This document shows positions 15,128 to 33,892 of a stretch of 64,000 bases of DNA, piece by piece; the first letter of the stretch is position 1, and each line of letters begins with the position of its first letter. The stretch lies in the NCBI RefSeq assembly GCF_046105845.1, contig NZ_CP151004.1; one strand, written 5' to 3'. The translations under genes and the position numbers were made by a program. The notes below the pieces were generated by a model. That model was given only the letters and a program-made list of their open reading frames with translations, searched no databases and was not told the origin of the DNA. Source of the stretch: Escherichia coli (GTDB lineage Bacteria; Pseudomonadota; Gammaproteobacteria; Enterobacterales; Enterobacteriaceae).

Positions 15128-15787
15128 ATGCCAGCTTTAGATTTGATTCGACCGTCGGTAACCGCCATGCGGGTGATTGCCTCCGTTAACGCCGAATTTG
15201 CGCGTGAACTGAAATTGCCGCCGCATATTCGTAGCCTTGGGCTGATTTCTGCCGACTCCGATGACGTAACCTACATTGCGGCTGACGAAGCGACCAAGCA
15301 GGCGATGGTCGAAGTGGTGTATGGCCGCTCGCTGTATGCGGGAGCTGCACACGGACCGTCACCGACTGCCGGTGAAGTGCTGATTATGCTCGGTGGGCCA
15401 AACCCGGCGGAAGTGCGTGCTGGTCTGGATGCGATGGTTGCGCATATTGAAAATGGCGCGGCTTTCCAGTGGGCTAATGATGCGCAAGATACGGCATTCC
15501 TGGCACATGTAGTTTCGCGTACCGGTTCTTATCTCTCATCAACCGCCGGGATCACGCTTGGCGATCCGATGGCGTATCTGGTGGCACCGCCGCTGGAAGC
15601 GACCTACGGCATTGATGCAGCCCTGAAATCTGCCGACGTACAGCTGGTGACCTATGTCCCGCCGCCGTCTGAAACCAACTACTCGGCAGCATTTTTAACC
15701 GGTAGCCAGGCCGCGTGTAAAGCAGCCTGTAACGCCTTTACCGATGCAGTGCTGGAAATCGCGCGTAATCCAATCCAGCGTGCGTAA
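15128..15787 (+). CDS. eutL: EutL microcompartment shell protein (tandem BMC domain)
   Basis: 219 aa; follows eutC. Confidence 0.92.
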
Positions 15788-15799
15788 CGGAGGTTGCCG

Positions 15800-16300
15800 A
15801 TGATCAATGCACTGGGATTGCTGGAAGTGGACGGCATGGTCGCCGCGATAGATGCAGCTGATGCCATGCTCAAAGCAGCTAACGTTCGTCTGCTCAGTCA
15901 CGAAGTGCTTGACCCTGGTCGCCTAACGCTGGTGGTGGAAGGCGATCTGGCGGCGTGTCGTGCGGCGCTGGACGCAGGTTGTGCTGCCGCGATGCGTACC
16001 GGGCGTGTCATCAGCCGTAAGGAGATCGGTCGGCCAGACGATGACACCCAGTGGCTGGTTACTGGCTTTAACCGCCAGCCGAAGCAACCCGTAAAGGAAC
16101 CCGACGCGCCAGTTATCGTCGCGGAATCTGCTGACGAGTTGTTGGCGCTGTTAACATCAGTACGTCAGGGAATGACGGCAGGAGAAGTGGCAGCCCACTT
16201 TGGCTGGCCGCTCGAAAAAGCCAGAAATGCGCTCGAACAGCTCTTTTCTGCCGGGACGTTACGTAAACGCAGTAGTCGTTATCGTCTCAAGCCCCATTAA
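15800..16300 (+). CDS. eutK: EutK microcompartment shell protein (BMC domain with C-terminal basic extension)
   Basis: 166 aa MINALGLLEVDGMVAAIDAADAMLKAANV..; ATG at 15800 with acggagg SD chosen over upstream TTG. Confidence 0.9.
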   Translation: MINALGLLEVDGMVAAIDAADAMLKAANVRLLSHEVLDPGRLTLVVEGDLAACRAALDAGCAAAMRTGRVISRKEIGRPDDDTQWLVTGFNRQPKQPVKEPDAPVIVAESADELLALLTSVRQGMTAGEVAAHFGWPLEKARNALEQLFSAGTLRKRSSRYRLKPH

Positions 16301-16345
16301 CCTGTCGGAGGTGCCGGGTGTCCTACAACACCCGGCATTAACATC

Positions 16346-17398
16346 ATGAAAAAGACCCGTACAGCCAATTTGCACCATCTTTATCATGAACCCTTACCCG
16401 AAAACCTGAAGCTCACGCCGAAGGTCGAAGTGGATAATGTTCATCAACGACAGACAACGGATGTCTATGAACATGCTTTGACGATTACCGCCTGGCAGCA
16501 GATTTACGATCAGCTGCATCCGGGCAAGTTTCATGGTGAATTTACGGAAATTCTACTCGATGATATTCAGGTTTTTCGTGAATACACCGGTCTGGCGCTG
16601 CGTCAGTCGTGCCTGGTCTGGCCGAACTCGTTCTGGTTTGGCATTCCGGCGACGCGCGGTGAGCAGGGATTTATCGGTTCGCAATGTTTGGGAAGCGCAG
16701 AAATTGCGACGCGCCCTGGCGGCACCGAGTTTGAATTAAGTACGCCGGACGATTACACGATCCTGGGCGTAGTGCTTTCTGAAGATGTCATCACCCGTCA
16801 GGCTAACTTTTTGCATAATCCGGATCGGGTATTACATATGCTGCGTAGCCAGTCGGCGCTGGAAGTGAAAGAACAGCATAAAGCCGCGCTGTGGGGCTTT
16901 GTCCAACAGGCGCTGGCGACATTTTGCGAGAACCCGGAAAATCTTCATCAGCCTGCTGTGCGTAAAGTGCTGGGGGATAATTTGCTAATGGCGATGGGGG
17001 CGATGCTGGAAGAAGCGCAGCCAATGGTGACGGCGGAAAGCATCAGTCATCAGAGTTACCGTAGATTACTTTCCCGCGCCCGTGAATATGTGCTGGAAAA
17101 TATGTCTGAGCCGGTGACGGTGCTGGACTTGTGTAATCAACTGCATGTCAGCCGCCGCACGCTACAAAACGCGTTTCACGCTATTTTAGGCATTGGCCCA
17201 AATGCGTGGCTGAAACGCATTCGCCTGAACGCCGTACGCCGCGAACTGATAAGCCCTTGGTCGCAAAGCACAACGGTAAAAGACGCAGCCATGCAGTGGG
17301 GATTCTGGCATCTGGGGCAATTCGCCACGGATTATCAGCAACTGTTTGCCGAGAAGCCGTCACTGACGCTGCATCAGCGGATGCGGGAATGGGGGTGA
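16346..17398 (+). CDS. eutR: EutR AraC-family transcriptional activator of the eut operon
   Basis: 350 aa with C-terminal AraC-type HTH; last gene of eut cluster. Confidence 0.92.
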
Positions 17399-31567: not shown

Positions 31568-31603
31568 GTAGGCCTGATAAGACGCGCAAGCGTCGCATCA
31601 GGC
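31568..31603. repeat. REP (repetitive extragenic palindrome)
   Basis: gtaggcctgataagacgcgcaagcgtcgcatcaggc, classic E. coli REP-type palindrome. Confidence 0.85.
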
Positions 31604-33865: not shown

Positions 33866-33892
33866 AAAATGGCGCCGATGGGCGCCATTTTT
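33864..33892. terminator. Bidirectional rho-independent terminator between pdxK (+) and crr (-)
   Basis: aaaaaa-atggcgcc-gatg-ggcgccat-ttttt; perfect 8-bp stem with A and T tracts on either side. Confidence 0.85.

Follow-up and report, generated by a model that had tools for sequence, protein, structure and literature searches.

Hairpins that stand between a Shine-Dalgarno (SD) sequence and its start codon have been described in phage T4, where genes 38 and 25 each carry one and where mutations that destabilise it lower initiation (PMC3014915; PMC7297116). In gene 38 the hairpin reduces the spacing between SD and AUG from 22 nt to 5 nt (PMC3014915; PMC7297116). In gene 25, whose site is intercistronic (gene 26-25), the reduction is from 27 nt to 11 nt, and close relatives keep the hairpin, whereas distant ones lack it and have an ordinary site instead (PMC3014915). 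On the E. coli chromosome, the ribosome-binding region of thrS is also interrupted by a stable hairpin that is tolerated by the 30S subunit (PMC7297116). In thrS, the SD lies at a normal distance from the start codon, and the hairpin, which is the operator for ThrRS, separates the SD from an upstream single-stranded enhancer. Very few split ribosome-binding sites have experimental support, and phages account for most of these.

The junction between eutK and eutR in the E. coli ethanolamine utilisation operon would be a chromosomal example. As in T4 gene 25, the site is intercistronic, and a hairpin (HP1) would bring the distance from SD to AUG from 34 nt to 8-10 nt; also as in gene 25, the hairpin is kept in close relatives and is absent in more distant ones, which have ordinary sites. 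The gene 25 case was proven by mutagenesis, reporter assays, and DMS probing, whereas that of eutR is one of comparative inference only. HP1 is also longer and more GC-rich than the gene 25 hairpin (10-12 bp, and 30 bp in one genus), and eutR differs in belonging to a chromosomal operon, in encoding a transcriptional activator, and in having a second helix predicted over its start codon. Gene 38 shares with eutR the order SD, hairpin, and AUG, but it has a shorter loop-out and a tighter effective spacing, it is a phage late gene, and no sequence relation exists between the two. In contrast to thrS, the eutR hairpin stands between SD and AUG, and it has no known ligand. The traits of a split site found at eutR are a distant strong SD, an intervening hairpin, no proximal SD, compensatory changes in the stem, and ordinary ribosome-binding sites in relatives without the hairpin.

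Two further classes of element resemble HP1. Like REP/BIME elements and other intercistronic stabiliser hairpins, it is palindromic, rich in GC, and extragenic, stands inside an operon, and lacks a U-tract, and its stem base GCCGG..CCGGC recalls the REP ends; unlike them, it has a fixed position relative to the SD and the ATG. With intrinsic terminators and attenuators, it shares a stable GC-rich hairpin in the transcript.

The eutK-eutR junction of E. coli

The window is the whole stretch of 64,000 nucleotides of E. coli DNA that was analysed, and all positions refer to it. Its + strand carries the distal end of the eut operon (eutB, eutC, eutL, eutK, and eutR), and after eutR come hemF and amiA, on the − strand. 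The features of the junction are the following.

15800..16300, + strand: eutK coding sequence, stop codon TAA at 16298-16300 (ORF list, RefSeq annotation of identical E. coli DNA, Pfam BMC and EutK_C domains on orthologues)
16301..16306, + strand: linker of 6 nt (CCTGTC), of constant length, from the eutK stop to the SD
16307..16311, + strand: distal SD GGAGG, 34 nt 5' of the ATG in linear sequence (invariant CGGAGG, anti-SD energy)
16312..16337, + strand: HP1, with 5' arm 16312-16321, loop 16322-16327, and 3' arm 16328-16337 (folding, covariation)
16338..16345, + strand: unpaired A/U-rich spacer TTAACATC from HP1 to the start codon, without SD-like motif
16344..16389, + strand: HP2, a predicted helix over the eutR start codon, with 5' arm 16344-16355 (TCATGA.AAAGA) and 3' arm 16378-16389 (TCTTT.TCATGA, eutR codons 11-15)
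16346..17398, + strand: eutR coding sequence, 350 aa, AraC-type activator, start codon ATG at 16346-16348 (ORF and RefSeq annotation)

The start of eutR is supported by its orthologues, all of which keep the N-terminus MKK...NLHHLYHE, and tblastn matches begin at residue 1. In E. coli there is no alternative upstream in-frame start for eutR, the eutK stop codon being in frame with no start codon in between. Of 5426 complete E. coli genomes, 5389 carried a single copy of the 51 bases around the hairpin, and in 5362 this copy was identical; in the most divergent E. coli copy, the changes were confined to the loop and to the linker between stop and SD. At the eutL-eutK junction (15785-15802) an identical GGAGG is present at ordinary spacing (TAA-c-GGAGG-ttgccg-ATG), and the bases 3' of it (TTGCCG) look like the start of the eutR hairpin arm (TGCCGG).

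A sequence-only reading of this DNA had drawn attention to a stable hairpin without a U-tract at 16313-16336 (gccgggtg-tcctacaa-cacccggc), with a perfect 8-bp stem beginning 12 nt after the eutK stop. We confirmed the sequence, the distance, and the perfect pairing, and no T-run was found 3' of the stem; the length given was too short, as T16312-A16337 and T16321-A16328 pair as well. HP1 is then made of 10 Watson-Crick pairs (16312-16321 with 16328-16337) and a 6-nt loop, and it could gain two G-U pairs (16310/16339 and 16311/16338). It folds with a predicted energy of -22.7 kcal/mol (z = -5.3), and none of 200 shuffles folded as well.

The window has 7 places with a perfect stem of at least 10 bp, where dinucleotide shuffles gave an expectation of 0.6, and perfect GC-rich 8-bp stems were just ~2-3-fold enriched. 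The remaining hairpins with perfect stems of at least 10 bp are centred near 2301, 33878, 36833, 46885, 50490, and 62816; those near 33878, 46885, and 50490 are followed by T-runs and resemble ordinary intrinsic terminators. The decisive evidence that HP1 is not a product of chance is the conservation of the structure across genera with compensatory changes, and HP1 is a genuine conserved RNA structure.

Several known identities were considered for HP1 and rejected. A pattern scan called neither an intrinsic terminator nor a promoter at this place, the 3' flank being ATTAACATC in E. coli and (T/A)TAAAAGATC in the other species. On the minus strand, the T-run would precede the stem rather than follow it, which argues against a terminator in that direction too. 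The suggestion of a partial attenuator, made in the sequence-only reading, is not supported: after all of more than 30 orthologous hairpins the U-run is absent, and an A-rich tract is found instead. A REP element was discarded on the basis of the copy number (median of one place per genome in the 5389 E. coli genomes) and of the alignment to the Y and Z REP consensus sequences, which was equal to that of shuffles in four of five species (E. coli, Salmonella, Citrobacter, Klebsiella). Canonical REP elements (GCCTGATGCGACGC...CTTATCAGGCCTAC) are present on the minus strand of the window at ~31568-31600 and ~53398, and they are unlike HP1. Among curated Rfam families, the best overlapping matches reached 15-16 bits (E ~7), far under the gathering threshold.

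HP1 is conserved as a structure

The comparison included 63 eutR loci from species-representative genomes, 12 retrieved via protein clusters, and one divergent E. coli locus. A hairpin is present at the same place in Escherichia, Salmonella, Citrobacter, the Klebsiella oxytoca group, a K. pneumoniae-like contig, Phytobacter, Pseudocitrobacter, a Pluralibacter MAG, Intestinirhabdus, strain ESL0689, and several metagenomic lineages. What is kept is the structure and not the sequence, as the upper stems and the loops differ between genera.

Indels shift the stems out of register in the raw MAFFT alignment, from which RNAalifold therefore derived a spurious GUCGG/CCGGC helix; this approach was replaced by covariance-model (CM) realignment and by an alignment-free analysis in which pairs were indexed outward and inward from the invariant CCGG...CCGG anchors. 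Among 25 distinct orthologues, 96.4% of the stem cells held canonical pairs, compared with 34-49% when the 3' partner was slid by 1-3 nt, and single stem positions carried up to four pair types (UA, CG, GU, AU). In the same set, G-U combinations were found in 30 stem cells and A-C combinations in 8; this excess of G-U over A-C assigns the structure to the sense (mRNA) strand. After CM realignment, the structure beat 500 of 500 shuffles and all the slid registers, despite a one-base register error left for Citrobacter. The CM search found one copy of HP1 per locus and none elsewhere in the window.

Variation is concentrated in the upper stem, and the five basal pairs GCCGG/CCGGC hardly vary; even these change by compensation, from C-G to U-A in Phytobacter and from G-C to A-U in one further locus (L076). 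The CGGAGG at the 5' base of the stem is invariant in 25 of 25 aligned junctions, with the loop and the upper stem saturated with change, and the further hairpin-bearing loci always have GGAGG, GGAGA, or GGAG. A double-stranded DNA operator was rejected on these data: the spacing between half-sites varies (16-19 nt, and ~66 nt in one case), the upper stem covaries, and G-U exceeds A-C.

A strong SD at a fixed distance from the hairpin

The GGAGG that abuts the 5' base of the stem and the lack of an SD near the ATG were both overlooked in the earlier reading. Across 30 distinct junctions from at least 8 genera, the gap between the eutK stop and the SD is 6 nt in all but one. In the same 30 junctions, the gap between SD and stem is 0-2 nt and the gap between stem and start codon is 8-11 nt, whatever the length of the hairpin. 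The hairpin itself spans 22-28 nt, with predicted energies of -15 to -24 kcal/mol, and 77 nt in one genus, Intestinirhabdus. Counted from the end of the GGAGG, the start codon of E. coli is 34 nt away; 29 junctions range from 34 to 38 nt, and the remaining one has 86 nt. Intestinirhabdus alba (locus L028, 2411-2500) can be regarded as a natural length variant: its 77-nt hairpin of ~30 pairs has the same stem base and a predicted energy of -48 to -50 kcal/mol, and the flanks, namely GGAGG and a spacer of 9 nt, are unchanged.

The strength of the SD was expressed as the energy of the duplex with the 3' end of the 16S rRNA (anti-SD). In hairpin-bearing junctions, the best site in the -20..-3 region had energies of -0.9 to -2.8 kcal/mol, with no SD-like motif between stem and ATG in any of them, and the distal site, at -32..-37, had energies of -9.5 to -10.8 kcal/mol (-6.6 in the single GGAGA junction, L067). 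In hairpin-less orthologues, the best site had energies of -5.4 to -12.6 kcal/mol and was placed 4-9 nt from the start, with no comparable distal site. This second group includes Buttiauxella, Hafnia, Morganella, Pluralibacter gergoviae, Dickeya, Pectobacterium, Brenneria, Lonsdalea, and Samsonia. In a Buttiauxella-like junction of this group (L070), the layout is stop, 6 nt, AAGGAG, 6 nt, and ATG; the E. coli junction thus resembles this layout after the insertion of ~28 nt between SD and ATG.

Lineages of transitional form, with EutR identities of 68-78%, were also found. In Yokenella the hairpin is degenerate (z = -0.4) and a new GGAGGGG stands beside the ATG, in L073 the distal SD is lost and a proximal GGTGGAG beside the ATG is gained, and in L069 both a proximal and a distal SD are present. 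The arrangement is rare: among the starts of all long ORFs in the 64-kb window, that of eutR alone joins a proximal site that is weak to a strong distal one with a hairpin in between. GGAGG has a frequency of 4.2e-4 per nt.

A second predicted helix over the start codon

In wider folding contexts, the eutR AUG is predicted to lie in HP2 (dG -9.7), with a probability of being unpaired of ~0 in most orthologues. Synonymous diversity over eutR codons 10-21 is 0.114, compared with a gene mean of 0.40, and it is the lowest of 339 windows of codons. In the K. pneumoniae-like lineage (L066) both arms of HP2 change together, in Entomohabitans (L068) an A-to-G change keeps the pair as U-G, and Buttiauxella has a different helix over its AUG; no true covariation was found for HP2 among the orthologues compared. 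We tentatively propose that HP2 sequesters the eutR start codon, and the predicted folding suggests that initiation at eutR may be deliberately weak and folding-dependent.

In short contexts, CUGUCGG (16302-16308) is predicted to pair with CCGUACAG (16357-16364, eutR codons 4-7), enclosing HP1 and the AUG. Outer helices around the SD and the spacer, as well as long-range pairings to eutK, were not retained as conserved elements, as they differ between species and lack covariation.

A proposed split ribosome-binding site for eutR

Our preferred reading, held at a little over even chances, is that eutR has a split (noncontiguous) ribosome-binding site, in which HP1 is the structured spacer. The hairpin varies in length and sequence while its distances to the SD and to the ATG are fixed, which points to translation initiation, rather than control at the RNA level, as its primary function. 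Coherently with the sequence-only reading, the hairpin probably sets the output of EutR relative to the upstream structural genes, and the comparative data identify it as a selected structure of the sense-strand RNA.

On this model, the only SD of the eut mRNA open to eutR would be the GGAGG at 16307-16311, which at 34 nt from the ATG would be too far in an extended molecule. The 26-nt hairpin directly 3' of it would fold stably and loop those bases out, so that the separation between SD and AUG would shrink to the end of the helix plus 8-10 unpaired A/U-rich bases, a workable spacing. The 30S subunit would anchor on the SD with the AUG placed in the P site, while the hairpin stays folded and protrudes. 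This subunit could be a fresh one or one released by termination at the eutK stop, which precedes the SD by 6 nt, and probably both routes would be served. The expected output would be a low, fold-dependent synthesis of EutR, because the spacing falls towards the upper limit of what is functional and a second, weak helix is predicted to hold the AUG; such an output would fit an autoregulatory activator. That ribosomes use the distal SD, and that the hairpin enhances initiation rather than being merely tolerated, is what we infer from the conservation pattern.

The gain of a proximal SD in lineages where the hairpin is degraded or the distal SD is lost fits the split-site model. In Salmonella, a translational fusion of eutR with its native region (-454 to +104) is expressed, and its expression is lowered by CsrA overproduction (PMC10433801). 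In the Salmonella sequence, the distal SD provides the only GGA, the core motif bound by CsrA, between -60 and +30.

Other observations go against this reading. The effective spacing of 8-11 nt plus the end of the helix exceeds the optimum. In about half of the species, the last two G of the SD are predicted to be able to form G-U pairs with the 3' flank, and in longer folding contexts the SD is often predicted to be paired with eutK sequence. With the AUG predicted to be sequestered in HP2, the main effect of the region could be repression. SD-less genes make up about a fifth or more of those of E. coli, and the absence of a proximal SD taken alone is therefore weak evidence. The near-invariance of the basal GCCGG/CCGGC is not required by a pure spacer role.

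A further point regards the constitutive promoter P2, which has been placed before eutR (PMC5821096): if its start fell 3' of 16311, the P2 transcripts would be without an SD. The supplements of the Cappable-seq and SMRT-Cappable-seq studies have no entry for transcription starts in the eutR region. A PWM scan for P2 returned weak candidates only, none of which is common to all species; most of them lie 5' of the SD and a few within the junction itself.

Alternative explanations

Among the alternatives, the one to which we give the most weight, though we hold it to be unlikely, is that HP1 acts, as suggested in the sequence-only reading, as an intercistronic element of mRNA stability or processing. 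RNase E would cut the A/U tract 3' of the stem and the hairpin would then block 3'-to-5' exonucleases, with the eutS-eutK mRNA outliving the eutR mRNA. Hairpins of this kind are known as stabilisers at other operon junctions (malE-malF REP, puf, pap), and HP1 is stable, conserved, and placed at the 3' end of the block of structural genes, with a single-stranded A/U-rich tract 3' of it in all species. Moreover, the eutR mRNA is very short-lived and is a substrate of RNase E (PMC8565329). This explanation leaves without a reason the invariant GGAGG at the stem base, the fixed distances of 0-2 nt to the SD and of 8-11 nt to the ATG, and the fact that orthologues acquire a proximal SD precisely where the hairpin or the distal SD has decayed; as a second function, a stability role is perhaps compatible with the split ribosome-binding site. 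Cleavage by RNase III, which needs about two helical turns (~20 bp), was rejected, as 29 of 30 junctions have stems of 8-12 pairs. No 3' end is listed at the junction in the supplement of Adams et al., a result that is uninformative as the eut operon is silent and prophage-disrupted in K-12; the same supplement (Adams et al. 2021) has an antisense entry inside eutR (MG1655 2554640, plus strand) and another in eutB at 2558053, apparently in a table related to bicyclomycin. Rather improbable is the opposite view of the SD, in which HP1 insulates: the hairpin would hold a strong SD off the eutR start, leaving a weak SD-less translation from the A-rich leader and, with the flanking pairings and HP2, a coupling to termination at eutK. 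In its favour, the predicted folds have the AUG paired in HP2 and, in long contexts, part of the SD paired too, the 5' strand of the predicted outer helix, CUGUCGG, could be reached by a ribosome terminating at the eutK stop, and a low level of synthesis is expected for a regulator. If the SD were unused, however, its perfect conservation amid saturated neighbours would have no explanation; the outer pairings differ between species without covariation, and, judging from the size of the footprint of a terminating ribosome, the hairpin starts past it, so that coupling would not open it.

The near-invariant GCCGG/CCGGC base could also mark a site on the RNA for a protein, the candidates being CsrA, through the adjacent GGA, and EutK, encoded directly upstream, through its nucleic-acid-binding C-terminal domain; to this reading we assign a low probability, slightly below that of insulation. 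The stem varies above five almost invariant basal pairs, CsrA overproduction lowers a Salmonella P2-eutR'-'lacZ fusion (PMC10433801), and EutK has a C-terminal helix-turn-helix domain without known ligand (PMC5821096). Every hairpin-bearing junction checked for domains follows a eutK with EutK_C, but EutK_C is also found upstream of hairpin-less junctions (L070 and the Buttiauxella loci), and the basal pairs do change by compensation (Phytobacter, L076). As regards CsrA, which usually uses two or more GGA motifs, typically in hairpin loops and with one overlapping the SD, there is a single GGA, located within the distal SD and not in a loop. A double-stranded DNA site is in turn disfavoured by the spacing between CCGG half-sites, which ranges from 16 to ~66 nt. 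A more elaborate form, to which we give very little credit, is that the two-hairpin leader (SD, HP1, and HP2) is a putative switch read by a protein, in which free (unassembled) EutK, a shell protein, would bind the junction of its own mRNA through its C-terminal domain and tune EutR. The MavR sRNA was rejected as a ligand of this region, as it binds the 3' part of the eutR coding sequence and not the eutK-eutR junction. The alternative that we judge least credible of all is that the GGAGG serves a tiny ORF of 7 codons, from GTG 16318 to TAA 16339-16341, the translation of which would melt the hairpin and be followed by reinitiation at the eutR ATG, 4 nt on. In E. coli, the GTG stands 6 nt after the GGAGG and the ORF stops 4 nt before the ATG, and gene callers take hairpin-internal starts whenever they are in frame (protein clusters P0001, P0013, and P0016). 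The start codon is nevertheless absent in 8 of 23 junctions examined, the 7-codon ORF is not conserved outside Escherichia, and elsewhere the ORFs have 1-6 codons, gaps to the SD of 5-34 nt, and variable frames and stop positions; the E. coli GTG is also buried in a helix of ~-20 kcal/mol. A conserved leader working by upstream-ORF reinitiation was thus rejected, as start, frame, and stop are not maintained across the 23 junctions.

A split ribosome-binding site would bear on gene annotation as well. In several lineages (P0001, P0013, and P0016; loci L066 and L075), the eutR called by gene finders is 6-9 codons longer and starts inside the hairpin, at a TTG, GTG, or ATG in the loop or in an arm, and these calls are apparently drawn by the distal SD. 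Judging from the N-terminal extension, P0001 (129 member sequences) seems to represent a variant of E. coli whose 3' arm has lost 1 nt, so that GTG 16318 is fused in frame with eutR.

Implications for the control of ethanolamine utilisation

If the split-site reading is true, the mis-starts assigned by gene callers to eutR in several lineages would be explained. The eutR leader would also be a clean system to study how the 30S subunit accommodates a hairpin between SD and AUG, as it offers natural covariation, a threefold length variant, and reversions to a proximal SD. If, instead, the leader were a switch read by EutK, it would link the supply of microcompartment shell to the induction of the operon.

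EutR is the master activator of ethanolamine utilisation, and it feeds into the control of virulence genes in EHEC and Salmonella. Its dosage is known to be critical, as EutR and the lyase compete for adenosylcobalamin and as EutR is part of a positive feedback loop. A split ribosome-binding site at the eutK-eutR junction would represent an unrecognised, structure-dependent control point for the dosage of EutR.
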